Under the pieces are notes generated by a model. The model made no database searches. It was not told the DNA's origin and saw only the letters and a list, made by a program, of their open reading frames with translations. Position numbers and translations under genes: made by a program. From positions 27,642 through 91,641 of the forward strand of contig CAZNZD010000002.1 in assembly GCA_964577435.1 (NCBI GenBank): a stretch of 64,000 bases of DNA, in the 5' to 3' direction. Of this stretch, positions 31,738 through 55,369 are shown one piece after another; within the stretch, counting starts at the first letter, position 1, and every line of letters begins with the position of its first letter. This stretch comes from an uncultured Clostridia bacterium (GTDB taxonomy: Bacteria; Bacillota; DTU025; MWDF01).

Positions 31738-32586
31738 ATGGAAAGCAGGGCCTCCGAGATCATAAAGGCAGTCTTGGAATCGACGGGCAGGGACATCTCC
31801 CCGTTCGACCCTTCTTTTCTGGAAGTGGCTGCTGGCAAGAGGATGGAGAAGCTGTCTGCGAAGGATGCGGACAGCTACACCTTGCTGCTCAGTGCGGATG
31901 CAAAGGAGGCAGTAGCATACTCCGAATCCCTTGGCAACTCTTACAGCGAGTTCTTCAGGAACAGCCTTACGTTCTCGGTGCTTGAAAGGCATGTCATCCC
32001 AGCGTTGCTATCGCGCAAGAGCGAATCGGGGGGCGGCGAGATAAGGGTCTGGTCTGCCGGTTGTGCCGCGGGACAGGAGCCGTATTCGCTAGCTATCCTG
32101 CTTGCCGAGCTGGGGCTTGGCTGCGACACTGAGCCGCGCGTCAGAATCTTTGCAACAGACAGCAATCCAGACCAGGTTGAGATGGCCAAAGCAGCCCTCT
32201 ATGATGCCAGGAACCTTAGAAACGTAAGATTGAGCCACGTAAAGAAATATTTCACCAAGACTGGGGACAGATACAAGCTTAACGGAGCCATCAGGCAGAT
32301 GGTCGAGTTCTCGGTGCTGGACCTGCTGGATGACAAGCATGCGTTCCCGGCAAGCAGCATCTATGGGAGCTTCGACATCATCACCTGCTGCAATGTCCTT
32401 TACTACTACTCGACGGATTCTCAGAACAAGATAATAAACCGGCTCTTCAAGGCCCTGGGCAAGGGAGGCTGCATCGTAACCGACGAGGTGGAGAAGAGCG
32501 TAATCGATAGATTCAGAAGACTAAGGCCGCTTGAGTGGACATCGCCAGTATTCTGCCCGTCAGGTTGGGAGGATGAGCGCAAATGA
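31738..32586 (+). CDS. CheR-type SAM-dependent protein-glutamate methyltransferase
   Basis: EFFRNSLTFSVLE, IRVWSAGCAAGQEPYSLAILL and CCNVLYYY are CheR N- and SAM-domain motifs. ATG 31738 follows GAGGTG. Confidence 0.75.
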   Translation: MESRASEIIKAVLESTGRDISPFDPSFLEVAAGKRMEKLSAKDADSYTLLLSADAKEAVAYSESLGNSYSEFFRNSLTFSVLERHVIPALLSRKSESGGGEIRVWSAGCAAGQEPYSLAILLAELGLGCDTEPRVRIFATDSNPDQVEMAKAALYDARNLRNVRLSHVKKYFTKTGDRYKLNGAIRQMVEFSVLDLLDDKHAFPASSIYGSFDIITCCNVLYYYSTDSQNKIINRLFKALGKGGCIVTDEVEKSVIDRFRRLRPLEWTSPVFCPSGWEDERK

Positions 32587-35108
32587 AGATAAGATCTCAG
32601 TATATTCTTTATTTCGTTATACTATTCGCCCTCGTGCTGGCGCTCGGCGCCTTCTCTCTGTACCAGAATGAGAGCATCTGGCTACAGGCACAGGGGCTTT
32701 ACAACCATCCGTTCACGGTCAGCCGAACCCTTGCTACCATCAGCGAGGACGTACTGGCGATGCACCGCGCAGTGAAGGATTTCACCATAACGGAGAGTCA
32801 GCCATTCCGGCAGGAGCTCACCCATGAGATAGAACGGTCTGACGACGAAGTTATAGAGGCTATAGAGGTCCTGTATGACAGATACCTCGGGCCGAAGGCC
32901 GACGTGGACGACCTGCATGAGTCCTTCATATCCTGGAGGGCGATCAGGAAGGAGATAACCAGCCTGGCCGACTCAGGAGAGCGGCAGGAGGCCATCGTCT
33001 CCACCCTTCCGAGCGGAAACGGCGGCGCGAAGGTGGACGAGCTTATGGGGATTCTCAACAGGATCCAGAGTTTTGCAGATAACAAGGCCGAAGAGTTCAT
33101 AGGCGAGGCCGAGCAGAATAGGGATTCCCTCAGGCGGTCGCTGATCGCCTATCTTATAGCAGCTATTCTGCTGCTCGCCCTCATAGTCTACCTTCTTATC
33201 AGAAACACCCTAGTGCCGCTTCAATCGATGACAGAAACAGCCCGCAAGTTAGGTGAAGGAAACTACTCGGTAAGGTCCCCATACAGCTCGAAAAGCGAGC
33301 TTGGGGAGCTGTCGAGGACGCTGAACATAATGGCAGGAAACATTGAGGGCGACATAGCCCTCAAAGATGCGGCATCTGGCCTGATCGCTGAGGTCGTAGC
33401 CTCCGATGAGCCGTCCGAGTTCTTCAAGGATTGCGCAAAGGCCCTGGCCAGGGCGACCGGATCGCAAATCGCGGCGCTTTTCGTTCTTAACGTCGCATCC
33501 GGGGAGTTCGAGCACAAATCCTCGGTAGGATATCTTCCTGAAGGCAGGCTTGCATTCAAGGCGTCCCAGCTTGAAGGCGAGCTTGGGTTCGCCATGCTGG
33601 ACAGGGCTGTAAAGCATGTGAAGCTGCCCGCGGGGGATGCGCCTTTCATCTATCGGTCTGCGGTGGGCGACATCAGGCCCTCGGAGCTTTTGAACATCCC
33701 GCTCATATCCGGCGAGGAGGAACTCGGGTTCATAACGCTTGCAAGGACGGATAGCTACGACGAAGGGGACCTGAAGTTGCTTTCGGCGGTCCAGGACGTG
33801 CTCGCATCAAAGCTCTCCAGCATATTGTCGGCCATCAGGGCGAGGGAGTTCGCCGACATGCTCAAGAGGAGCAACTACGAGCTCGAGATCCAGGCAAGGG
33901 AGATCGAGACGCAGTCTAACGAGCTTATCCGGCAGAACACCGAGCTTGAGACCCAGAAGGTGAAGCTCGATGAGGCCAATAGGCATAAGAGCGTCTTCCT
34001 ATCCAACATGAGCCATGAGCTGAGGACGCCGCTAAACTCCATAATATCGCTTTCATCCGTGCTCTCCAGGCGCTTCAAGGACCATCTGCCTAAGCAGGAG
34101 GCGGAGTACATGGAGACCATAGAGAGAAACGGCAAGCATCTTCTTAGCGTGATCAACGACGTACTGGACTTGTCCAGGATTGAGGCAGGCAAGGAGGTCG
34201 TCCAGCTTGAGAAGGTGGACCTTAACTTCCTTGCCGAAGAGGCCGTCAAAATGCTTGAGCCCCAGGCAAGGGAGAAACAGGTGCCGCTTGTCTGCGAGAC
34301 GGATAGGGGCCTGCCGCTTGCTACCGCTGACGAGACGAAGGTAAGGCACATTCTAATAAACCTCATCGGAAACGCGATCAAGTTCACCGAGAAGGGGATA
34401 ATCCGGGTGATGACCTTCGAGGACGGGGACGACCTGTGCGTCGGAGTCACGGACACCGGAATAGGCATCCCGGAAGAGCATCTTGAGGACATATTCGACG
34501 AGTTCAAGCAGGCAGACGAGAGCAACACCCGCAAGCGCGGCGGCACAGGCCTGGGCCTTGCGATATCCAGGAAGTACGCCGAGCTGATGGGAGCTGCGAT
34601 AACGGTCAGAAGCAAGGTCGGCGCAGGTTCCTCATTCACACTCAGAATCTCAAAGGGTGGCAGTACGGATGCTGTCATTGCGGAAGGCAAGAAGCTTGAG
34701 AGAGGTAAAAACCATCTCGACCGCAGGGGAATGAGGCTGCTTCTTGTAGAGGACAGCGAACCTGCCATAGTCCAGATGCAGGACATACTCAGCGAGGCGG
34801 GCTTCGTCACTGAGGTCGCACGTGACGGAAGGCAGGCACTTGAGAGGATTGCGGCCGCAATGCCGGACGGGATCATCCTCGACCTGATGATGCCGGAAGT
34901 CGACGGTTTCGAGGTTCTAAGGCAGGTGAGGGGCATTGAGGAGACCGCGGGGCTGCCTGTCCTTATCCTGACAGCGAAGCAAGTCTCCAAGCAGGAGCTC
35001 AGCTTCCTGAAGGGGAACAACATAAGCCAGCTCATCGAAAAGGGCGATGTATCCAAGGACGAGCTTCTGACCGCTTTGGACAGGATGCTTGCACACAAGG
35101 GGAAGTAG
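32583..35108 (+). CDS. Hybrid sensor histidine kinase with 4HB_MCP-like sensor, HAMP, GAF, HisKA, HATPase and REC domains
   Basis: Two TM helices flank a roughly 150-aa helical sensor, then HAMP, a GAF-like region, H-box SHELRTPLN and a C-terminal receiver (LLLVEDSE...LDLMMP). It overlaps the cheR stop (ATGA). Confidence 0.8.
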   Translation: MKIRSQYILYFVILFALVLALGAFSLYQNESIWLQAQGLYNHPFTVSRTLATISEDVLAMHRAVKDFTITESQPFRQELTHEIERSDDEVIEAIEVLYDRYLGPKADVDDLHESFISWRAIRKEITSLADSGERQEAIVSTLPSGNGGAKVDELMGILNRIQSFADNKAEEFIGEAEQNRDSLRRSLIAYLIAAILLLALIVYLLIRNTLVPLQSMTETARKLGEGNYSVRSPYSSKSELGELSRTLNIMAGNIEGDIALKDAASGLIAEVVASDEPSEFFKDCAKALARATGSQIAALFVLNVASGEFEHKSSVGYLPEGRLAFKASQLEGELGFAMLDRAVKHVKLPAGDAPFIYRSAVGDIRPSELLNIPLISGEEELGFITLARTDSYDEGDLKLLSAVQDVLASKLSSILSAIRAREFADMLKRSNYELEIQAREIETQSNELIRQNTELETQKVKLDEANRHKSVFLSNMSHELRTPLNSIISLSSVLSRRFKDHLPKQEAEYMETIERNGKHLLSVINDVLDLSRIEAGKEVVQLEKVDLNFLAEEAVKMLEPQAREKQVPLVCETDRGLPLATADETKVRHILINLIGNAIKFTEKGIIRVMTFEDGDDLCVGVTDTGIGIPEEHLEDIFDEFKQADESNTRKRGGTGLGLAISRKYAELMGAAITVRSKVGAGSSFTLRISKGGSTDAVIAEGKKLERGKNHLDRRGMRLLLVEDSEPAIVQMQDILSEAGFVTEVARDGRQALERIAAAMPDGIILDLMMPEVDGFEVLRQVRGIEETAGLPVLILTAKQVSKQELSFLKGNNISQLIEKGDVSKDELLTALDRMLAHKGK

Positions 35109-35139
35109 CGAGACGAACCACCTTCAAGGAGGTCGACCG

Positions 35140-37989
35140 GTGAACAGATACAAGCTTCTTGCCATAGACGACAACGCCGACAACCTGCTCTCGCTGAGGG
35201 CAGTGCTTGAGGATTTCCTGCCGGACATAGCCTTCCTGACCGCAACCGACTGGGAAAGCGGAATAGAGACAGCCTTGCAGGAGGTGCCGGACGCCATACT
35301 CCTGGACATCGTCATGCCAGGGATGGATGGATATGAGGTCTGCAGGAGGCTTAAAGCCGAGGAGAAGCTAAAGGGGGTGCCTATAACCTTCCTTACGGCC
35401 TGGAAGACCAGCCCCGATGTGCACAAGCTGGCGATTGAGGCCGGCGCTGAGGGCTTCCTTACGAAGCCGTTCGACGAAGGCGAGCTGATTTCTCAGATCA
35501 AGGCCATGTTCAGGCATAGCTCGGCCGCCAAAGAGGAGAAGCTCGAAAAGGAGAGGCTCAGCGACGAGGTGATCAAGGCGACCGCGGAGCTTAGGCGCGA
35601 GCTGGCCGAAAGGCGTGAAGCCGAGATCAGGCTGCAGCTATCGAACGAAAGGCTCATGAGAAGCCAGCAGACGATGTCCGGCCTGCTGATCAAGCTTCGT
35701 AAGGAGAACGAGGCCCGGATCGAAAGCGAGAGGCACTTCAGGGACCTGGCGGATAACGGGATGGCGTTGGTGTGGACCTCCGGACTTGACATGAAGTGCG
35801 ACTACTTCAACAGGCCATGGCTGGAGTTCACTGGAAGGAAACTGGAGCAGGAGATGGGGGATGGCTGGATTACCGGGGTGCATCCCGATGACGCGGAGGA
35901 ATGTGGAAGCACCTACAGGAAAGCCTTCGATGGCAGGGAGAAGTTCAGCATGACCTACAGGCTCCGAAGGCACGACGGGGCTTATCGGTGGCTGGTCGAC
36001 GAGGGCACGCCGAGGTATGACGCCGGAGGGGAGTTCATCGGCTATATCGGGCATTGCCTGGATATCACTGACGAGCTGGAGGCAAGGGAGATAGCCCAGA
36101 AGAGCGAGGAGAAGTTCCGCCTGTTGGTCGAAAGCGCCCCTGTAGGCATCTTCATCCAGACTGAAAGGCGTTTCAGCTACCTGAATCAGAACGCGCTCAG
36201 GATGTTCGGGGCGGAGTCAGAGGACCAATTGATCGGTACGCCGATACTAGACAGGTTCCATCCAGATTATCACAAGACGGTGAACGAGAGGATCCATGAG
36301 CTCAACAATAAGAAGCATGATGTGCCTAACATCCAGGAGATGTGCCTTACTGTCGATGGCGAGCCGTTCTTCGTGGAAGTATCGGCAGTCCCCATCAACT
36401 TCGATGGCAAGGACGGGGCGCTGGTCTTCTTCAATGACATCTCAGCAAGGAAAAGGGCGGAGGCCCTACTTGAGGAGGAGAGGCTCAAGCTTGTCAGCAT
36501 GACCAATATGCTCAATACACTGCTTGACAGCATACCAGACGGCATCCTTCTGCTTGACAGGGAAGGCAGGATCGAATGGGCCAACACGGCGGCCAGGAAC
36601 CTGGTAGCGGACGGAAGGCAGCTCGCTGAAGGCGGCAACTGCAACAGCTTCCTTTTCGGTTCGGATGGGCCTTGCGATGAATGCCCGCTAGAGGGAGTCT
36701 TCGACAGGGGAGAGCAGGTCAACTGGGAACGCCTTCTGGATAACGGGTCCTCCTGGGACATAAGGATAGTGCCGATCGCCGATGCCACGGGCAGCTACCA
36801 CCGGGCAATCGAGATCATCCGGGACGTGACAAAGCAGAGGAAAACGGAGGAGCAGCTGAGGCAATCTCAGAAGATGGAATCGGTAGGAAGGCTCGCTGGA
36901 GGCGTGGCACACGATTTCAACAACCTGATAACGGCAATATTAGGCAACTGCGAGATGGCGATGATGGACCTTGCCGAAGGCGACGCGGTCAGGGAATACC
37001 TCCGTGATATCCGCAAAGCCGGGGAGAACGCCTCAGGCCTTACAAGGCAGCTTCTGGCATTCAGCAGGAGACAGGTGCTTCAGCCCGAGGTGATGAGCCT
37101 GAACCAGGTGATCGAGGAGAACCGCAGGATGCTCTCCCGGCTCATGAGAGAGAACATCAGCTATGAGGAGAAGCTTGAAAGCGGGCTCTGCCCCATAGAG
37201 GCAGACAAGAGCCAGGTGGAGCAGGTCCTGATGAACCTCGTCATCAATGCGTCCGATGCCATGCCGGACGGCGGCACGCTCACCGTCGAGACTTTCGGCA
37301 CCGACATAACCCCGGGGCAAATCGCAGCGCAAGGCGAGATGGAACCCGGAAGGTATGCAGTCCTTGCGGTAAGCGATACCGGTATCGGCATGAGCGAGAG
37401 CACCATGAAGCAGATCTTCGAACCTTTCTTCACAACCAAGGACAAGGAGAAGGGGACCGGCCTCGGGCTTTCCACCGTCTATGGAATAGTGAACCAGAGC
37501 AGGGGCTACATCTCGGTGTACAGCGAGATAGGCAAGGGCAGCACTTTCAAGGTCTACCTGAGATGTGTGGACAAGCAGGTAGCCACGGAAACCGGCAGGC
37601 AGACTGAAGCCCTTTCCGGAAACGAGCGGATCCTTCTGGTGGAAAACGACGTCGGCGTCAGGACCATCATCGCAAAGCAGCTGAGGCAGTTCGGATATAA
37701 GGTGACGGAAGCGCCGGACGGCGAGGAGGGTTTGAGGATCTTCAAGGTTGATGCTGACGGCTTCGACCTGATACTGACTGATGTGGTCATGCCCAGGCTC
37801 GGGGGAAGGCAGATGGCCGAGGAGGCGGCAAAGCTTCGGCCCGGCCAGAAAGTCCTGTACATGTCGGGGTACACCGAAAACAGCATTGTCCATAACGGCG
37901 TGCTTGAGGCGGGAGTGCAGTTCATCGGGAAGCCTTTCACCGCGGAGGGGCTTGCAAGGAAAGTAAGGTCGATCCTGGACTGGGCATGA
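35140..37989 (+). CDS. Hybrid histidine kinase with REC, three PAS domains, HisKA, HATPase and REC
   Basis: N-terminal receiver (LLAIDDNADN...LLDIVMPGMDG), repeated PAS cores, HDFNNLIT H-box and a C-terminal receiver. The likely start is GTG 35140 after AAGGAGG. Confidence 0.8.
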   Translation: MNRYKLLAIDDNADNLLSLRAVLEDFLPDIAFLTATDWESGIETALQEVPDAILLDIVMPGMDGYEVCRRLKAEEKLKGVPITFLTAWKTSPDVHKLAIEAGAEGFLTKPFDEGELISQIKAMFRHSSAAKEEKLEKERLSDEVIKATAELRRELAERREAEIRLQLSNERLMRSQQTMSGLLIKLRKENEARIESERHFRDLADNGMALVWTSGLDMKCDYFNRPWLEFTGRKLEQEMGDGWITGVHPDDAEECGSTYRKAFDGREKFSMTYRLRRHDGAYRWLVDEGTPRYDAGGEFIGYIGHCLDITDELEAREIAQKSEEKFRLLVESAPVGIFIQTERRFSYLNQNALRMFGAESEDQLIGTPILDRFHPDYHKTVNERIHELNNKKHDVPNIQEMCLTVDGEPFFVEVSAVPINFDGKDGALVFFNDISARKRAEALLEEERLKLVSMTNMLNTLLDSIPDGILLLDREGRIEWANTAARNLVADGRQLAEGGNCNSFLFGSDGPCDECPLEGVFDRGEQVNWERLLDNGSSWDIRIVPIADATGSYHRAIEIIRDVTKQRKTEEQLRQSQKMESVGRLAGGVAHDFNNLITAILGNCEMAMMDLAEGDAVREYLRDIRKAGENASGLTRQLLAFSRRQVLQPEVMSLNQVIEENRRMLSRLMRENISYEEKLESGLCPIEADKSQVEQVLMNLVINASDAMPDGGTLTVETFGTDITPGQIAAQGEMEPGRYAVLAVSDTGIGMSESTMKQIFEPFFTTKDKEKGTGLGLSTVYGIVNQSRGYISVYSEIGKGSTFKVYLRCVDKQVATETGRQTEALSGNERILLVENDVGVRTIIAKQLRQFGYKVTEAPDGEEGLRIFKVDADGFDLILTDVVMPRLGGRQMAEEAAKLRPGQKVLYMSGYTENSIVHNGVLEAGVQFIGKPFTAEGLARKVRSILDWA

Positions 37990-38052
37990 TTTCTTGAAAG
38001 GCGCAGATATTGGCCGGACCAAGTCACAATCTCGATCAAGGGGGAGTCCAAG

Positions 38053-38877
38053 GTGAGGATTGAGGATTTCGTGCACGATAAGGAACCTGTCAGAATCGAC
38101 GACGGCATATTCTGGGTAGGATACGCCGACGAGAACAGGGGCCTGCACTGCAACCCATACCTTGTCGTCGAAGGCAGCGAGGCCGTGCTCATCGATGGAG
38201 GCAACCGGGACGACTTCAGCAATGTGATGTTGAAGATACTGAGGACCGGCCTTGACCCGTCGCAGATAACAAGGCTCATCTACCAGCACTACGACCCCGA
38301 TCTATGCGGAAGCCTTCCGCAGCTTGAAAGCATAATCGACAGCGATTCCCTGAGGATAATCTCGCATGAGGAGAACAACGTCTTCATCCATTACTACTCC
38401 TCGAGGACGGCAAAGCTCGACTACCGCGGGATGGGAAGCCATTTCGACTTTGCCACAGGCAGGAGGCTGGAATTCTACGCCACTCCCTTCTGCCATCATT
38501 CGGGAAGTTTCGTTACTCTGGATACTAAGACAAGGACCCTGTTCTCAAGTGATCTCTTCGGCAGCTTCGACAATACATGGTCGCTCATTCTGGAGCTGAC
38601 GGACCGGTGCAGGCAGTGCGAGGACATCAGCGCATGCCCGAATAGCAAGGAAAGATGCCCCTTGTCAGGCATAATCAGCTTCCATCAAAGGATTATGACT
38701 TCGAACAAGGCCCTTTCCTATTCGCTCGATGTCATCGAGCGCCTTGATGCCGACAGGATAGCCCCTCAGCACGGAAGCGTGATCGCGACCAAGGAAGATG
38801 TAAAGGCCGTGATACGCCACCTTAGGGCGATCAAGGACGTCGGCATAGACCTTCTGATGGCGGGGGAGCCAAGATGA
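38053..38877 (+). CDS. Standalone flavodiiron-protein-like MBL-fold domain (ODP-like di-metal sensor domain) with no flavodoxin domain
   Basis: DDGIFWVGYADENRGLHCNPYLVVEGSEAVLIDGG...YQHYDPDLCGSLPQL aligns to the FDP N-terminal domain. The motif is HxDxD-L rather than the canonical HxExDH. Confidence 0.55.
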   Translation: MRIEDFVHDKEPVRIDDGIFWVGYADENRGLHCNPYLVVEGSEAVLIDGGNRDDFSNVMLKILRTGLDPSQITRLIYQHYDPDLCGSLPQLESIIDSDSLRIISHEENNVFIHYYSSRTAKLDYRGMGSHFDFATGRRLEFYATPFCHHSGSFVTLDTKTRTLFSSDLFGSFDNTWSLILELTDRCRQCEDISACPNSKERCPLSGIISFHQRIMTSNKALSYSLDVIERLDADRIAPQHGSVIATKEDVKAVIRHLRAIKDVGIDLLMAGEPR

Positions 38878-40130
38878 ACTGCCATGACGTCAAGCTGAAG
38901 GATGCCTTAAGGGAGGACTCTGGGTCAAGCGCCGGCATGCTGTCGTATGCCCTCGAAAGCTTCGCCAGGGAGATCGACTATGCAAACCAGAACGAGCTGA
39001 TGAAGAAGCTCATCTTGGAGCATTCCCTCATTGCCAGGAGCCTCGAGCTACTTAACGATAGGCTCACTACGAGCAGGCAGATGCTTGCCGAGGCGCAGAA
39101 GATAGCCCTTCTGGGCCGCTGGGACATAGACCTTGCCCAAGGAAGCATTACATGGTCGAAGTCCATGTACGACATACTTGAGCTGGACAGGTCCGTGCCT
39201 GAGTCCTCGGAGCTCTTCTTCTCCTTCGTCCACCCTGAGGACCTAGAGGAGGTAAAGAGACTTTATAAGGAGATGTTCTCGCCAAAGGAGCCGTGGACGA
39301 CGAGATACCGCCTGCTTCTGAGGGACGGGAAGGTGAAGTGGGTCCACCTTAGGTTCTTTACGGCCCAGGATCAGTCCGGGAGGATAAGCAAGCTGTATGG
39401 CACCATACAGGATATAACCGAGATGAAGAAGGTCGAAGACGAGCTGGAAAGGTATAGCCATCAGCTGGAGCAGCTGGTTGAGGCGAAAGTCCAGGAGGTC
39501 ACGGCCTCGCAGATGGCGACCATCTATGCGCTTATCAAGCTCTCGGAATCCAGGGACGACGAGACGGGGGCCCATATCGAGCGGACTGCGAGCTTCTGCC
39601 GACTGCTTGCCGAAAGGGCAAGGACCCTTCCTGAGTACGCGGGGGAGATCGACGACCATTTTACTGAGACAATCTATAAAGCTAGCCCCCTGCACGACAT
39701 AGGGAAGGTCGGCATACCGGACAGCATCCTGCTTAAACCCGGCAAGCTGACAGTTGAGGAGTTCGCCGTGATGAAGACTCACGTGCAGATAGGCTACGAA
39801 ACCCTCGCCAAAGTCGGCCAGCAGTATGACAGGAACGAGTTTCTGAAGATGGGAATGGATATCGCCCTGAATCATCACGAGAAGTGGGACGGCAGCGGTT
39901 ACGGCAGGGGGCTAAAAGGCAGCAGCATACCTTTGTCTGCAAGGATAATGGCGCTTTCGGACGTCTATGATGCGCTTCGCTCAAAAAGGGTTTACAAGGA
40001 GGCGTTCTCTCATGAGAAGAGCTTGCAGATAATGAGCTCAAGCAGGGGAAGCCACTTCGACCCGCTGCTTGTCGATATCTTCCTCCGGCATCATGAGGAA
40101 TTGATGGCCCTGTACGAATCCATCAAGTGA
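38874..40130 (+). CDS. PAS-domain HD-GYP-family phosphodiesterase with the GYP motif degenerate to GYG
   Basis: HDIGKVGIP and HHEKWDGSGYGRGLKG. It overlaps the upstream stop by 4 nt. Confidence 0.8.
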   Translation: MNCHDVKLKDALREDSGSSAGMLSYALESFAREIDYANQNELMKKLILEHSLIARSLELLNDRLTTSRQMLAEAQKIALLGRWDIDLAQGSITWSKSMYDILELDRSVPESSELFFSFVHPEDLEEVKRLYKEMFSPKEPWTTRYRLLLRDGKVKWVHLRFFTAQDQSGRISKLYGTIQDITEMKKVEDELERYSHQLEQLVEAKVQEVTASQMATIYALIKLSESRDDETGAHIERTASFCRLLAERARTLPEYAGEIDDHFTETIYKASPLHDIGKVGIPDSILLKPGKLTVEEFAVMKTHVQIGYETLAKVGQQYDRNEFLKMGMDIALNHHEKWDGSGYGRGLKGSSIPLSARIMALSDVYDALRSKRVYKEAFSHEKSLQIMSSSRGSHFDPLLVDIFLRHHEELMALYESIK

Positions 40131-40574
40131 TTCATAAGACAGTGAAGGCCCCTGTAGACCGCAGATCCCGCTTGCCATGACCGACCATTGCCGGAGCGCT
40201 GATCCTGACGGATAAGCGCTGCTATAGGCATCTGGTACATTTGGCGTGATATTATACCATATTGCGATAACCCCGCAGCCTTGCGGGATCTCTCTAAGAT
40301 CAGCAACCCGCTTCAGGCATCGCTGAAGTCATATGCCCCGGACTTGACTTAGATGGCATCATACTCGCGCGTAGTTATTGCGCATATCACCACATTTATA
40401 AGTATATGGGCATCCGATTGAGATGCGCGCAGCAGCTCGCCGTCGTTCAAGCTGGAAGCTATTTACAGAATATGATTGAAGTTTTTAAATAAACAGGTTA
40501 TCAGATAGGTTCAGATATTGAAAGTACTTGCTTTCTTAGCATTCGGGAATAAAATGTAGGAGTTAGGAAAGAAG

Positions 40575-42479
40575 ATGTTCTCTATGTCTGTCACGGGCTT
40601 CTTAAGGAAGAGCTTAAGAGCGAAGATCCTGCTGGGCTACATGATAATCATCGGTGTGCTCATGATGGCAGGCTTATGGGTGATCCTTAGCACCTTGGCC
40701 ATCGACAGGGCTGTTGAAGCCATCACCATAGACAGCTATAAAAGCCTTGCCGCCGTCCATGCGATGCTGAACTCGCTTGACGAGTTGAGCATGGCTCAGT
40801 CCAGGATGATGATAGATTCCGAATCGCAGGGGATCGATCAAGTCTACATGAAGGTCGATAGATCCTTCAGAGGCAGCCTTTCGACAGCGCAAGGAAATAT
40901 CACGTATCCCGGGGAGAGGGAAGCCCTGCAGGAGATCTCCGCTCAGTACGACAGCTTCATGCGCAGCGTGCTAAGAATCAGCACTTTGATGCAGGTAGTC
41001 AGCTCCGCCGAGGCGGTTGCCGAATACTCTGCCGTCACTGCCACATATTCTAAGATCACAGCCGCGCTGGAGGACCTATATTCCATCAACAACGAGTATA
41101 TGGTCAAGTCCACGAACAATGCCAAGGAGATCGCAGCCAGGGCGATCTCCTCGATTGTGCTTGTCAGCATCGCTGGACTGGGTATCGCGCTTTATCTGGG
41201 GGTTACTGTTTCCAACATCATCATCAAGCCGACCATGCTCCTGACTGAAAGCGCCAGGAAAGTGGCACAAGGAGAGCTTGGGATAATAGCCAGCGTCGGG
41301 TCCGAAGATGAGATCGGCATGCTGGCCAATGAATTCAACGCCATGACCGGGAAGCTTAAGGAGTATGAGGAAGCAAATATTGACAGACTGGTAACCGAGC
41401 AGAGGAAGTCGGAGGCAATAATCGGCTCTATCGCGGACCCGATAATAGTCCTGGATAAGGGCATGAGATGCCTCAGGATCAACCAGGCAGCCCAGTCTGT
41501 CTTCGGGCAGAGCCAGGAGGAAGCCCTGGGAAAGCACGTCCTTGAGCTGATAGATAGCCGCATCGCCCTGGAAGCCGCCCAAAAGTGCCTTGAGCATAAC
41601 AGGGTGCTGTCATTCAGCGGCACAGACAGGATCATCGAGCTTCCTGACGGGGAGAAAAGGAAGTACTACAGGATTGAGGCCGCCCCCTTCGAGGACATCG
41701 GGGCAAAAGCCCAAGGTGTAATCCTCTATCTCGCCGATGTTACCTACTTCAAAGAGGTAGACAAGCTGAAAACCGATTTTGTCTCTACCGCATCGCACGA
41801 GTTCAGGACTCCCCTTGCATCGATGGTTATGGCTTCGGAACTGCTGCTAGAAGAGAAAGCCGGAATACTGACCGATAAGCAGAGAAGGCTTACGCAAATC
41901 ATAAGGGAAGACTGCGCCAGGCTGCAGGAGCTGGTAAGCGAGCTGCTGGATATTTCAAAGCTCGAATCGGGGAGGATGGACTTCAACATGAAGGCCGTGA
42001 AGCTGGAGAATGCGTTCTCTTCATCTGCGTTCTCGCTCCTGCCCCTGTTCAAGGACAAGGGCGTGGAGCTGATAATCGATGATTCCTCCGCGATGCCGGC
42101 TGTCTATGCGGACCCGAAGAAGCTGCCGATAGTGCTTGGAAACTTGCTTTCAAACGCACTTAGGTATACTGACGCGGGCGGAAGCGTGAGAATCAGCACG
42201 GAGGATCTGGGCGATTCAGTGCGCATAAGCATAACCGACACGGGTATCGGCATCCCTGAGAACCTTCAGTCGAGGGTGTTCGAGAGGTTCTTCCAGATGA
42301 AAGGGGACGCCAGCCACCAAACAGGCGGGGCAGGGCTGGGATTGGCCCTGGTCAAAGAGACGGTGGAGGCCATGGGCGGGGGAGTGGAGCTAAGAAGCAA
42401 GCAGGGTGAAGGATCGCAGTTCAGTTTCACGCTGAGGAAAGCTTCAGAACATGATAAGGATGCCGGTATCAGGCCATGA
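40575..42479 (+). CDS. Sensor histidine kinase with a periplasmic helical sensor, HAMP, PAS, HisKA and HATPase
   Basis: H-box SHEFRTPLAS, N-box NLLSNALRYT, G-boxes DTGIGIP and GGAGLGLALV. Confidence 0.8.
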   Translation: MFSMSVTGFLRKSLRAKILLGYMIIIGVLMMAGLWVILSTLAIDRAVEAITIDSYKSLAAVHAMLNSLDELSMAQSRMMIDSESQGIDQVYMKVDRSFRGSLSTAQGNITYPGEREALQEISAQYDSFMRSVLRISTLMQVVSSAEAVAEYSAVTATYSKITAALEDLYSINNEYMVKSTNNAKEIAARAISSIVLVSIAGLGIALYLGVTVSNIIIKPTMLLTESARKVAQGELGIIASVGSEDEIGMLANEFNAMTGKLKEYEEANIDRLVTEQRKSEAIIGSIADPIIVLDKGMRCLRINQAAQSVFGQSQEEALGKHVLELIDSRIALEAAQKCLEHNRVLSFSGTDRIIELPDGEKRKYYRIEAAPFEDIGAKAQGVILYLADVTYFKEVDKLKTDFVSTASHEFRTPLASMVMASELLLEEKAGILTDKQRRLTQIIREDCARLQELVSELLDISKLESGRMDFNMKAVKLENAFSSSAFSLLPLFKDKGVELIIDDSSAMPAVYADPKKLPIVLGNLLSNALRYTDAGGSVRISTEDLGDSVRISITDTGIGIPENLQSRVFERFFQMKGDASHQTGGAGLGLALVKETVEAMGGGVELRSKQGEGSQFSFTLRKASEHDKDAGIRP

Positions 42480-42865
42480 AGAAGATACTTGTCGTCGAGG
42501 ACTCGAGAAATATTGCTGCGATGATATCGCTTTGCCTGGAAGAGCAGGGATACGCGGTCCTTTTGAGCGAAGACGGCATCGAAGCTGTCCGCTCTGCCTT
42601 CGAAGATGCTCCGGACCTCGTGCTTCTGGACCTTGTATTGCCCAGGATGAGCGGACTGACCGTTCTAAGGGCGCTGCGGGACAATCCTATGACTTCAGGT
42701 ATGCCTGTTATAGTAATCAGCGCACGTGCGCAGAAGGAAGACATCCAGGAAGCATACAGCCTTGGGGCAGATGATTATCTGGTGAAACCTTTTACGCCTT
42801 CGGAGCTGACCGAGCGAATATCTAGCCTCTTAAGGAGGGATATGGATGAGAATCCTAATAGTTGA
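42476..42865 (+). CDS. Single-domain CheY-like response regulator
   Basis: KILVVEDS...LLDLVLP...DYLVKPF. It overlaps the kinase stop by 4 nt. Confidence 0.8.
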   Translation: MKKILVVEDSRNIAAMISLCLEEQGYAVLLSEDGIEAVRSAFEDAPDLVLLDLVLPRMSGLTVLRALRDNPMTSGMPVIVISARAQKEDIQEAYSLGADDYLVKPFTPSELTERISSLLRRDMDENPNS

Positions 42866-43538
42866 CGATGATGCGAACATAAGGGCGATGATAAGGGAAT
42901 GCCTTGATGAACCAGGCAATATAATTGTCGAGGCCTCGTCGGGGGAAGAGGCTGTGGCCGAGGTCGAAGCCGCATCGGCTCCCTTCGATGTAGCGCTGCT
43001 CGACATGAAGATGCCAGGCATGGGCGGATTGCAGGCTCTAAGGCAGATGAAACGCCTGAGGCCGGACCAACAGGTCGTGATGATCACAGCTTACGGGACG
43101 GTAGAGACGGCGGTTGAGGCATTGAAGCTGGGAGCAGTGGATTACCTTAGGAAGCCTTTCACCACCAAGGATCTGAGGGAGATCGTCAAGCAGGTCTCCT
43201 CCAGGCCCGATTTCAAGGACATTGTCGGCCAGGGGGAGTCGGTAAGCAAGAAGACTGAGCGCAAGGACCTGATCTCCGCGGTGAAGAGCCTGCTTGTCTA
43301 CGGAAAAGCCGAGGAAGCTATGGCGCTTCTGCAGAGGATGGTGGGGGAGAACCCTGATGACCCAGAGGCATACAATCTTCTCGGGCTGCTCATGGAGGTC
43401 AAGGGGGACGTCCTGTCGGCCCAGAGGATGTACAGGGCTGCGCTCAGCCTGAATCCGAACTATGAGCCCGCAAGGGAGAACCTGGCGAACACGACCGAGA
43501 TGAGGTACCGCAATCAGAACACATTGAAGATCAGGTGA
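42846..43538 (+). CDS. Response regulator receiver fused to TPR repeats
   Basis: RILIVDDD...LLDMKMPG...DYLRKPF followed by a TPR-like C-terminus (AYNLLGLLMEVKGD..AQRMYRAALSLNPNYEPA). SD AAGGAGGG, with a 20-nt overlap of the upstream gene. Confidence 0.75.
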   Translation: MRILIVDDDANIRAMIRECLDEPGNIIVEASSGEEAVAEVEAASAPFDVALLDMKMPGMGGLQALRQMKRLRPDQQVVMITAYGTVETAVEALKLGAVDYLRKPFTTKDLREIVKQVSSRPDFKDIVGQGESVSKKTERKDLISAVKSLLVYGKAEEAMALLQRMVGENPDDPEAYNLLGLLMEVKGDVLSAQRMYRAALSLNPNYEPARENLANTTEMRYRNQNTLKIR

Positions 43539-53836: not shown

Positions 53837-55369
53837 ATGATCGACACAAGGACCATATTCGCTTTCCAGGTCCTGATTTTCCTCGTAAGCCTCCTGATTC
53901 TGACGCAGGCATGGCTTCAGAACAGGTCAAGATATAAGGGGCTTGGATACTGGGCCCTTCTGATGTGCTTCACCAGCCTCGCGTATCTGCTAATCGCCCT
54001 TAGGGGAAGCATCTCCGACATATTCAGCATAATCCTGGGCAACATGCTGCTGCTTCTTGCAGTATCGCTTCTGGTAAGAGGGCTCAAGTTGTTCATGGGG
54101 GAGGCCGGAGTTAGCGCCGCTAACGCCTTTCTCCTTGTTTTCTCCTTGCTGGTGATTACCTATTTCACTTACGTCAGCCCGGACATAAGAATCAGGATAC
54201 TGATGGTCAACGGGGCATACCTGGTCCTATTCGGCCAGGTGATGATGATATTGCAGAGGAACAGGACGATGCGCGCAAACAATGCGATACTCCCCCTAAG
54301 GGTAAGCGTCGCAGCAATCATCATCCTGAACCTCATAAGGATAATCGGCCAGTTCATAATCCCTAGCCATTCTCAGAACCTTTTCAGCCAGAATCTGACG
54401 GACCAGATCTTCGTCGTCGCCCACACGCTCGCAGTCACATACCTTGTCATGAACCTCACGCTGCTAATCTCAGGAAGGCTGCTTGCCGAGGTGAAAGCGG
54501 AGGAGGCGAAGTTCAACAAGCTGTTCCACAATGCGCCTTACGCAGCCGCCATAACCAATGCGAAGACAGGCACGGTCATGGAGATCAACGACGAGATGCT
54601 GGAGCTTCTGGGATATAAGCTCGGCGAGGTGCGCGGCAGGGATTCCATCTCGCTCGGGGTCTGGGCAGACCCGGAGCAAAGGTCGCAAGTGATAGCGAAG
54701 CTCATGGCAGGCGGAGAAGTCGACGGGCTTGAGATCGATTTCACAGGCAGGGACGGCAAGCTTGTGCATACGCTGTTCTCTGCATCGCTTGTGAGAATTG
54801 GTGGGGAAGACCACATAATCTCCAGCATGAAGGACATAAGCGAGATAAGCAGACTCAAGATGAAGCTGGAGGAGATGGCAACGCACGATTTCCTGACGGG
54901 CCTTCCCAACAGGGCGTTTTTCTATGACAGCCTCACTAGGGCGCTCGCCCATGCGGCAAGGACCGGTGAGAGGCTTGCCGTGATGATGTTCGACATAAAC
55001 GGCTTCAAGTCAATAAACGACACCTATGGGCATGATGTCGGGGACAAGGTTCTTATCGCTGTCGCTGACAGGTTAAGAGCTTTCGTAAGGGCGGCCGACT
55101 TCGTGGCAAGGCATGGCGGCGACGAGTTCACATTGCTGGTTACGGGCGTTAAGGATGACGCTGACCTTGAGAAGGCGGGAGAAAGGCTCATCGATGCGTT
55201 CAGCGAGGATATCGCCATCGACGGCACTTCGTTTCCTATAAGGATAAGCATCGGCGTGGCGAGGTACCCTGAAAATGGAAAGGACTACGACATGCTCCTG
55301 AAGAGGGCGGACGAGGCGCTCTTCGCTGTGAAAAGGGAGGGCAAGAACTCCATGAGGTTCGCATCCTGA
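53837..55369 (+). CDS. Diguanylate cyclase with a 7TM sensor, PAS and GGDEF domains
   Basis: Seven N-terminal TM helices, a PAS core, then RHGGDEFTLL with an I-site-like RxxD. Confidence 0.8.
   Translation: MIDTRTIFAFQVLIFLVSLLILTQAWLQNRSRYKGLGYWALLMCFTSLAYLLIALRGSISDIFSIILGNMLLLLAVSLLVRGLKLFMGEAGVSAANAFLLVFSLLVITYFTYVSPDIRIRILMVNGAYLVLFGQVMMILQRNRTMRANNAILPLRVSVAAIIILNLIRIIGQFIIPSHSQNLFSQNLTDQIFVVAHTLAVTYLVMNLTLLISGRLLAEVKAEEAKFNKLFHNAPYAAAITNAKTGTVMEINDEMLELLGYKLGEVRGRDSISLGVWADPEQRSQVIAKLMAGGEVDGLEIDFTGRDGKLVHTLFSASLVRIGGEDHIISSMKDISEISRLKMKLEEMATHDFLTGLPNRAFFYDSLTRALAHAARTGERLAVMMFDINGFKSINDTYGHDVGDKVLIAVADRLRAFVRAADFVARHGGDEFTLLVTGVKDDADLEKAGERLIDAFSEDIAIDGTSFPIRISIGVARYPENGKDYDMLLKRADEALFAVKREGKNSMRFAS

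Follow-up and report, generated by a model that had tools for sequence, protein, structure and literature searches.

An ODP-family protein translationally linked to a PAS-HD-GYP protein: a conserved gene pair and candidate oxygen- and iron-responsive module of anaerobic bacteria

The Gene Pair

The DNA analyzed here, herein referred to as the window, is a stretch of 64,000 nucleotides from an uncultured Clostridia bacterium (assembly GCA_964577435.1, contig CAZNZD010000002.1, positions 27,642 to 91,641). The window contains a pair of overlapping genes (Table 1). The first gene encodes a 274-residue protein with a metallo-β-lactamase (MBL) fold, assigned below to the ODP family. The second gene encodes a 418-residue PAS-HD-GYP protein, a predicted phosphodiesterase (PDE) of cyclic di-GMP (c-di-GMP), hereafter called the partner. 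The pair was found in genomes from about seven phyla of anaerobes, and we propose that the two proteins may act together as a sensor and its effector.

The ATGA sequence shared by the two genes is the classical layout expected for translational coupling. This 4-nt overlap with a PAS plus HD-GYP gene had been described in the initial annotation of the locus and was found again in this analysis, together with Pfam matches of the second gene to PAS_3 and HD_5/HD. Long open reading frames (ORFs) on the reverse strand (e.g., 37033-38289) lack support from any family match and represent shadow ORFs in DNA with 55% GC. A scan for promoters and terminators around the pair gave no signal above shuffle expectation.

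Table 1. Positions of the two genes, their translation signals, and the domains and predicted functional residues of their products (window coordinates).
Feature	Coordinates	Strand	Remarks
ODP gene	38053..38877	+	274 aa, GTG start, standalone MBL fold without a flavodoxin domain
Partner gene	38874..40130	+	418 aa, ATG start, PAS-HD-GYP
Shine-Dalgarno sequence of the ODP gene, GGGGGAG	38040..38046	+	Direct sequence reading; 6 nt 5' of the GTG at 38053
Shine-Dalgarno sequence of the partner gene, GGGGGAG	38862..38868	+	Within the 3' end of the ODP gene
ATGA start/stop overlap	38874..38877	+	4 nt; the ODP stop codon TGA is 38875-38877
MBL motif 2, ODP form, H79-Y-D81-P-D83 (predicted di-iron ligands)	38287..38301	+	Same H/D/D in 6qrq and 6qnm
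H148, MBL motif 3 ligand	38494..38496	+	Aligns with His of the solved ODPs; invariant
D167, MBL motif 4 ligand	38551..38553	+	Aligns with Asp of the solved ODPs; invariant
Cys loop C186-x2-C189-x5-C195-x6-C202 (followed by Pro)	38608..38658	+	Lies between motifs 4 and 5; candidate site for an additional metal
H211 of the F-H motif (F210-H211)	38683..38685	+	Conserved; also in the solved ODPs
Q239-H240, motif 5 (APQHG)	38767..38772	+	APQHG identical in 6qrq and 6qnm; invariant
N-terminal adaptor helix of the partner, aa 20-77	38931..39104	+	Single continuous helix in the model, leading directly into PAS; proposed ODP docking/transmission element
PAS domain, about aa 80-181	39111..39416	+	Pfam PAS_3 and model
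Long helix connecting PAS to HD-GYP, aa 182-225	39417..39548	+	Model
HD-GYP catalytic domain	39549..40127	+	Residue-by-residue alignment to PmGH
G342-Y343-G344 (GYG for GYP)	39897..39905	+	Third position varies in 76 orthologs

ODP-Family Protein

By sequence and by predicted structure alike, the 274-residue protein is a clear member of the ODP family (Pfam: PF19583). It matches the whole PF19583 model (positions 1-194 of 194) with an E-value of 1.3e-51 and a score of 175.7 bits, the cutoff being 27.2. The match to the general Lactamase_B model is far weaker, and neither a flavodoxin domain nor any other domain was found with Pfam. The flavorubredoxin models of NCBIfam give about 39 bits, with cutoffs above 600 (711 for one model). 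The best matches among PDB sequences are the solved ODPs 6qrq (8.8e-21) and 6qnm (1.8e-13), followed by flavodiiron proteins at about 1e-8; the identity to the two solved ODPs is 25-27%. An AlphaFold2 model built on 79 homologs has a predicted local distance difference test score (pLDDT) of 85.6 and a predicted template modeling (TM) score of 0.87. The top 10 Foldseek matches of this model in the PDB are all ODP chains, with target-normalized TM scores of 0.77-0.86, and flavodiiron proteins are the next best folds, with query-normalized TM scores of about 0.65-0.72.

The initial annotation had described a standalone domain of the flavodiiron or ODP type without flavodoxin and had suggested a comparison with structures of both kinds. 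The comparison agrees with this description and places the ODPs ahead of the flavodiiron proteins. The protein does not belong to the flavodiiron proteins, as it lacks flavodoxin and its motif 2 reads HYDPDL and not HxExDH. This difference had been noted in the initial annotation as a possible sign of altered metal or ligand chemistry. The motif is indeed present and differs from the flavodiiron one, but it is not peculiar, since H79-Y-D81-P-D83-L84 aligns with H-Q-D-P-D-V of both solved ODPs in HMMER alignments.

The residues H79, D81, D83, H148, D167, H211, Q239, and H240 are invariant in the 79 homologs, and the string H-D-D-x-H-D-H-Q-H recurs in the wider family, represented by 150 cluster representatives. 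In the ODP of Thermotoga maritima, the Gln of motif 5 takes the place of the last His of motif 2 (PMC7785958). The 274-residue protein lacks the fourth His of motif 2 and contains Q239, and thus has the same pattern. Every ODP-type ligand is present in the alignment to 6qrq and 6qnm; a loss of all di-metal ligands, by which the initial annotation would have recognized a generic MBL hydrolase, was not observed.

Three more Cys residues show little or no variation: C33 (38149-38151, in LHCNPY), C85 (38305-38307, just after the Asp of motif 2), and C147 (38491-38493, just before H148). They are also common in ODPs without the Cys loop described below (pattern CCC/CCL). The solved ODPs have no Cys at the two positions visible in the alignments, C85 and C147. 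These three residues may be redox-relevant thiols near the di-iron site.

PAS-HD-GYP Partner

Pfam matches in the partner are PAS_3 at residues 92-178 and HD_5/HD at residues 233-397 (HD_5, 1.3e-30; HD, 1.3e-18), and its AlphaFold2 model has a pLDDT of 84.3. Residues 207-414 align with PmGH (PDB: 4mcw) with an E-value of 6e-44 and with PA4781 (PDB: 4r8z) with an E-value of 5e-41. A weaker match, at 2e-27, was found to 5z7c, an HD-GYP protein specific for cyclic GMP-AMP (cGAMP). The metal ligands of PmGH are E185, H189, H221, D222, H250, H276, H277, and D305, the residues D183 and K225 are essential, and the E/D-T-G sequence is the signature of the trinuclear-iron subclass of HD-GYP proteins (PMC4159591). 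All eight ligands have counterparts in the partner: E230, H234, H274, D275, H303, H334, H335, and D363. The equivalents of D183 and K225 are D228 and K278, and the subclass signature is present as E230-T-G. These catalytic residues are invariant or nearly so in 60 orthologs. As judged from these alignments, the partner is a catalytically competent-looking PDE of the trinuclear-iron class with a full set of predicted ligands.

A literal G-Y-P motif is not found in the partner, where the corresponding segment reads N333-HHEKWDGSGYG-344. In 76 orthologous partners, HHEKW[DN]GxGY is fixed, including the Gly and Tyr of the motif, and the position after the Tyr is occupied by P, L, N, M, Q, T, V, or G. 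The Tyr of GYP is a substrate-contacting residue (PMC4159591; HD-GYP survey), and the P286A variant of PmGH keeps its activity (PMC4159591). The missing Pro is probably functionally irrelevant in the partner. Thus, the GYG pointed out in the initial annotation is real but not special, as at least eight residues are tolerated at its third position. Its interpretation as a mark of an inactive or special enzyme was rejected because this position is variable in orthologs and the P286A variant of PmGH is active.

Conservation of the Gene Pair

Scanning one genome per species yielded 80 loci with an ODP 54-75% identical to the query. Most of these loci belong to Clostridia; the others come from Flexilinea, Synergistaceae, Desulfobulbaceae, Eggerthellales, Acholeplasmataceae, and Spirochaetia records. 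The phyla represented include Bacillota, Chloroflexota, Synergistota, Desulfobacterota, Actinomycetota, and Mycoplasmatota records. A close PAS-HD-GYP ortholog is located directly downstream of the ODP gene and on the same strand in 75 loci, mostly with the same 4-nt overlap. Two of the five exceptions are contigs that end within 125 bp. In L044, the partner is present and cut by the contig end; in L077 (Spirochaetia), an overlapping PAS-GGDEF gene takes the place of the HD-GYP gene; and in L025, no downstream partner was found. In total, the HD-GYP partner is present in 76 of the 78 informative loci (the 75 loci and L044, leaving out the two contigs without room for it).

No conserved third gene was found near the pair. 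The only recurrent neighbors are a DUF6179 gene upstream (17 of 68 loci) and a MacB/FtsX permease gene downstream (13 of 65 loci), both of which probably reflect lineage-specific synteny. Since the flanks are otherwise unrelated, the conserved unit is the gene pair itself. With E-values far below chance and this degree of adjacency, the pairing is not a chance match. The initial annotation had suggested a sensor-enzyme pair with an O2- or iron-type input into c-di-GMP turnover, and the conserved adjacency, the intact ligands, and the ODP fold support this suggestion. The upstream DUF6179 gene was observed in loci L034-L058, which are mostly of Christensenellaceae.

Four-Cysteine Loop

The 274-residue protein contains a feature that the initial annotation had not mentioned, a 17-residue CX2CX5CX6C loop. 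Both solved ODPs have an alignment gap in its place. The exact spacing was found in 178 of 200 close homologs, and four Cys, with small spacing changes allowed, in 190 of them. In the wider family (150 representatives), the loop is confined to one standalone subfamily, about 38% or more identical to the query, and many other ODPs have a short Cys-free loop, LYADENYFE, instead. A spacing of CX2CX5CX3C was seen in P0060, P0071, P0073, and P0080.

The loop probably holds a further metal, either Zn or an iron-sulfur (Fe-S) cluster. Its pLDDT is about 60 in the metal-free model, and no significant match to any solved metal site was found among PDB sequences. The CX2CX5C spacing is also listed in the literature for Fe-S proteins, including WhiB-type regulators, SPASM auxiliary clusters, and RseC, as a likeness of spacing only. 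The Fe-S proteins FNR and WhiB have a similar spacing, again a resemblance of spacing alone.

The two sites can be lost independently of each other. The divergent subfamily members P0137, P0142, P0148, P0211, and P0226 have lost di-iron ligands and keep all four Cys of the loop; P0130 and P0180 have likewise lost di-iron ligands and keep three Cys. Conversely, the ODP of L058 (5932-6795, from a Christensenella metagenome-assembled genome) has no Cys in the loop (ELPVDATNPSPEAKRNPLYG) and retains both the di-iron motif and the HD-GYP partner, whereas L018/P0055 and P0063 have only three loop Cys and retain the di-iron motif. Thus, the two sites are under separate selection.

Candidate Adaptor Helix Shared by Different Output Classes

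Divergent ODPs with the Cys loop adjoin genes for a PAS-less HD-GYP protein (L083), a SpoIIE phosphatase (L082), histidine kinases (L084 and L089), and a class III cyclase (L088). In more distant relatives, the ODP domain occurs in fusions with HisKA-HATPase, SpoIIE, class III cyclase, GGDEF(-REC), MCP, and REC domains. This variety of fused outputs fits the published picture in which ODP sensors have been adopted by many pathways.

A segment common to the partners was searched for with a profile of residues 20-72 of 74 HD-GYP partners, run against 5,739 ORFs, comprising those of the window and of all loci. Beyond the HD-GYP partners, no more than three proteins were matched, namely the kinase of L084 (8e-6), the phosphatase of L082 (4e-5), and the GGDEF protein of L077 (1e-4), the next E-value being 0.85. 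The profile was then rebuilt with these first non-HD-GYP matches added and run against 6,026 ORFs, with a background starting from 2.7. Three held-out proteins were matched by this iterated profile. In P0127, a natural fusion of a Cys-loop ODP with a kinase, the match covers residues 261-289, i.e., the linker between ODP and HisKA (8e-4). In the L088 cyclase (1.7e-3) and the L089 kinase (3.3e-3), it covers the N-terminus. The many other PAS, kinase, and GGDEF proteins among the 6,026 ORFs gave no match, and no Pfam family was matched by the adaptor segment. The E-values are modest; what lends them weight is the position of the matches, which is always the N-terminus of the adjacent gene product or a fusion linker, and their clear separation from the background. 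The same predicted helix of about 50 residues thus stands at the N-terminus of every partner of this ODP clade, in five output classes: HD-GYP proteins, GGDEF proteins, histidine kinases, a PP2C phosphatase, and a class III cyclase.

The specificity of this association was tested with two further ODPs. The closest Cys-less ODP, P0141 (44% identity), is followed by a SpoIIE gene with the adaptor segment (6e-3), and P0160, with 35% identity, is followed by a gene for a protein without it (320). The helix therefore goes with the ODP clade and not strictly with the Cys loop. A role of the Cys loop as the docking surface for the helix was also considered and is weakened, as the Cys-less P0141 and L058 still have adaptor-bearing partners.

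Several of these loci have other distinctive features. A gene for an MshEN protein with a T2SSE ATPase domain adjoins the ODP-kinase pairs with lost di-iron ligands in L084 (1363-2922) and L089 (6241-7935). MshEN is a c-di-GMP-binding protein (HD-GYP survey), and these neighbors hint at a link to pilus or secretion ATPases. In L088 (498-4307), the gene order is reversed: the class III cyclase gene (498-1295) overlaps the start of the ODP gene (1274-2128), which is followed by a TspO/MBR gene, an ORF of unknown function, and a gene of the ApbE flavin-transferase family. In L090 (3202-5250), P0141 heads an ODP-SpoIIE-STAS string that resembles a partner-switching (RsbU/RsbV-like) cascade with the ODP as its input. 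P0210, a metagenome protein of 284 residues, has an adaptor-like segment at residues 28-61 followed by no more than a C-terminal ODP half with the four Cys (residues 96-279), and it may be a permuted fusion or an artefact of assembly or gene calling.

Proposed Mechanism and Alternative Explanations

The explanation that we consider rather likely is that the pair forms a split sensor-effector module, in which a trans-acting O2/Fe(II) sensor tunes the hydrolysis of c-di-GMP. This mechanism is proposed by analogy with the ODP of Treponema denticola, an iron- and O2-binding protein whose target is a receptor encoded by a separate gene; ODP is described as an auxiliary sensor subunit that contacts its receptor (PMC6978683; PMC7666581). 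In the cytoplasm, the di-iron site (H79, D81, D83, H148, D167, Q239, and H240) would report the availability of Fe(II) and the presence of O2, as in T. denticola, and the Cys site would possibly add redox state or nitric oxide (NO) to the signal. The dimeric PAS-HD-GYP PDE would be produced in step with the ODP through translational coupling. The metal or oxygenation state of the ODP would alter its binding to the long N-terminal helix of the partner, and this change could reach the tri-iron HD-GYP site by way of the PAS domain and the second long helix, so that hydrolysis of c-di-GMP would be altered, whether upward or downward. In this way, strict anaerobes might switch a c-di-GMP-controlled behavior as their oxygen or iron status changes.

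Several points weigh against this explanation. The proposed signal is carried over from two distant relatives with 25-27% identity, and the four-Cys loop could change or dominate the chemistry. P0137 (L084) and P0142 (L089), both of which have lost di-iron ligands, still adjoin adaptor-bearing kinases, so the di-iron site cannot be the sensor in these proteins. In other proteins, HD-GYP iron centers are themselves sensitive to redox conditions (Bhr-HD-GYP review), and the enzyme alone could therefore account for a share of any response to O2. Finally, the substrate may be c-di-GMP or 3'3'-cGAMP, as the cGAMP-specific HD-GYP protein is itself a match.

The most probable alternative, which we nevertheless regard as unlikely, places the main sensor in the four-Cys loop. 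The loop would hold an Fe-S cluster that is labile to O2, NO, or redox changes, or else a redox-active site of Zn or thiols, the MBL domain would be mostly a scaffold, and the HD-GYP output would be the same as proposed above. The near-universal presence of the four Cys in the close homologs, the anaerobic hosts, and the recurrence of the CX2CX5C spacing in Fe-S proteins, a lead at the level of the pattern only, all fit this alternative. It is also consistent with the seven homologs that have lost di-iron ligands and keep three or four Cys, at least two of which pair with adaptor-bearing kinases. However, L058, which lacks all four Cys, and P0141, which lacks the whole insert, both keep the di-iron ligands and an adaptor-bearing partner, and L018/P0055 and P0063 have three Cys only. 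Moreover, no solved metal site was matched, the loop is of low confidence in the model, and Zn and Fe-S fit the sequence alike.

It is considerably less probable that the ODP-like protein is an enzyme or helper in the HD-GYP pathway, such as a hydrolase acting on pGpG or nucleotides, a scavenger of O2 or NO that shields the iron center of the partner, or a factor that supplies iron to this center or repairs it. Many phosphodiesterases have the MBL fold, the partner depends on a tri-iron center, both proteins are predicted iron proteins made in a fixed ratio, and the HD-GYP activity of Bhr-HD-GYP depends on reduced iron. Against this, the same ODP clade and helix serve kinases, a PP2C phosphatase, a GGDEF protein, and a class III cyclase. 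These proteins contain no HD-type iron center and do not produce pGpG, and such a variety of outputs is the signature of an input module. In addition, the hydrolytic HxHxDH motif is absent, the ligand set is that of O2-binding ODPs, and the protein lacks flavodoxin or any other domain through which electrons could enter for catalytic reduction of O2 or NO. Least probable of all is that the genes are mere neighbors and the PDE answers to the PAS domain that it contains or to the histidine kinases encoded on either side: the pair does lie inside a run of seven same-strand signaling genes with no promoter or terminator signal to delimit it, but the adjacency with start/stop overlap in 76 of 78 informative genomes amid unrelated flanks, the lack of conservation of the flanking kinases elsewhere, and the use of the adaptor helix as the ODP-kinase linker in a natural fusion weigh against it.

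Beyond the split sensor-effector module in the window, a broader proposal can be put forward, which we hold only tentatively and think somewhat doubtful as a whole. The ODP clade and the adaptor helix may constitute an unrecognized plug-in system, in which a sensor with two metal sites (di-iron and Cys4 Fe-S or Zn) would integrate O2, iron, and possibly NO or redox signals. This standalone sensor would dock on the adaptor helix, which would have been grafted in evolution onto the five output classes named above, if not more. Its HD-GYP form would be the dominant one, spread horizontally among strict anaerobes.

Relation to Known Systems

The closest known systems are the ODPs of T. denticola (TDE2498) and T. 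maritima (PDB: 6qnm, 6r9n, 6qrq, and 6qwo). They share with the window protein the Pfam family, the closest fold, a standalone MBL domain, the identical ligand pattern H-x-D-x-D, H, D, F-H, Q-H, and a gene that adjoins that of a signaling protein on which the ODP presumably acts in trans. They differ in the distant relationship noted above, in the added Cys loop of the window protein, and in the dedicated N-terminal helix of its partner, found in five output classes. In T. denticola, the partner is a sensor-less chemoreceptor feeding CheA, whereas here it is a predicted PAS-HD-GYP PDE. The chemical hallmark of ODPs is a pair of bound Fe atoms that gives a stable peroxo adduct with O2; the additional Cys loop could modify this chemistry in the window protein. 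The category of this pair has been seen before as a figure-legend label: ODP-'HD' operons are named in the legend of Figure S1 of TREND (Gumerov and Zhulin, 2020), which summarizes Muok et al. (2019). The HD-GYP pairing, its near-obligate coupling, the Cys loop, and the shared partner helix are not described in the searchable literature, although the supplement of Muok et al. (2019) may hold some of them.

The same physiological logic as that predicted here is found in Bhr-HD-GYP of Ferrovum sp. PN-J185, in which a non-heme di-iron O2/redox sensor likewise acts on an iron-dependent HD-GYP PDE of c-di-GMP. In that protein, the sensor is a hemerythrin four-helix bundle fused in cis; here, it is an MBL fold on a separate, coupled polypeptide, with a PAS domain and the adaptor helix in between. 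The flavodiiron proteins (FprA/ROO/NorV) have a homologous MBL-like di-iron domain. The protein studied here differs from them in having no flavodoxin, HxDxD-L in place of HxExDH, and the Gln of motif 5 as a ligand, so catalytic reduction of O2 or NO is not expected. The best structural relative of the catalytic domain of the partner is PmGH, the GAF-HD-GYP protein of Persephonella marina, which has a GAF domain where the partner has the adaptor helix and PAS, and Pro in GYP where the partner has Gly. A 2022 census of sensory inputs to c-di-GMP signaling includes heme, hemerythrin, and other sensors and no ODP or MBL-type sensor.

How the sensing of oxygen and iron feeds c-di-GMP-controlled behavior in strict anaerobes, such as motility, biofilm formation, and aggregation in digesters and guts, is poorly known. 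The module provides a compact, widespread, and tractable two-protein system for studying ODP signaling outside chemotaxis. Natural variants, in which the Cys loop or the di-iron ligands may each be present or missing, can separate the roles of the two metal sites, and the candidate docking helix would account for the combination of a single sensor family with many different outputs. Additionally, annotation can be improved for about 1,800 proteins labeled 'MBL fold metallo-hydrolase' or 'flavorubredoxin', as well as for their partners labeled 'response regulator' or 'HD domain-containing protein'.

Genomic Surroundings in the Window

The initial annotation had also pointed to a 7TM-PAS-GGDEF cyclase gene 14 kb downstream of the pair, at 53837. 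A PAS-GGDEF gene with about 6-7 N-terminal hydrophobic stretches is present at 53837-55369, but nothing ties it to the module: its product has no adaptor helix, and no conserved linkage was found, so it was rejected as a module member. The kinase-rich surroundings of the pair are local and are not kept in other genomes. They belong to a run of seven consecutive plus-strand signaling genes at 32583-43538, in the following order: a 4HB_MCP-HAMP-GAF hybrid kinase, a REC-PAS x3-kinase-REC protein, the ODP, the HD-GYP partner, a HAMP-PAS kinase, a REC protein, and a REC-domain protein (42846-43538). Several further starts and stops overlap within this run (35089/35108, 42476/42479, and 42846/42865).

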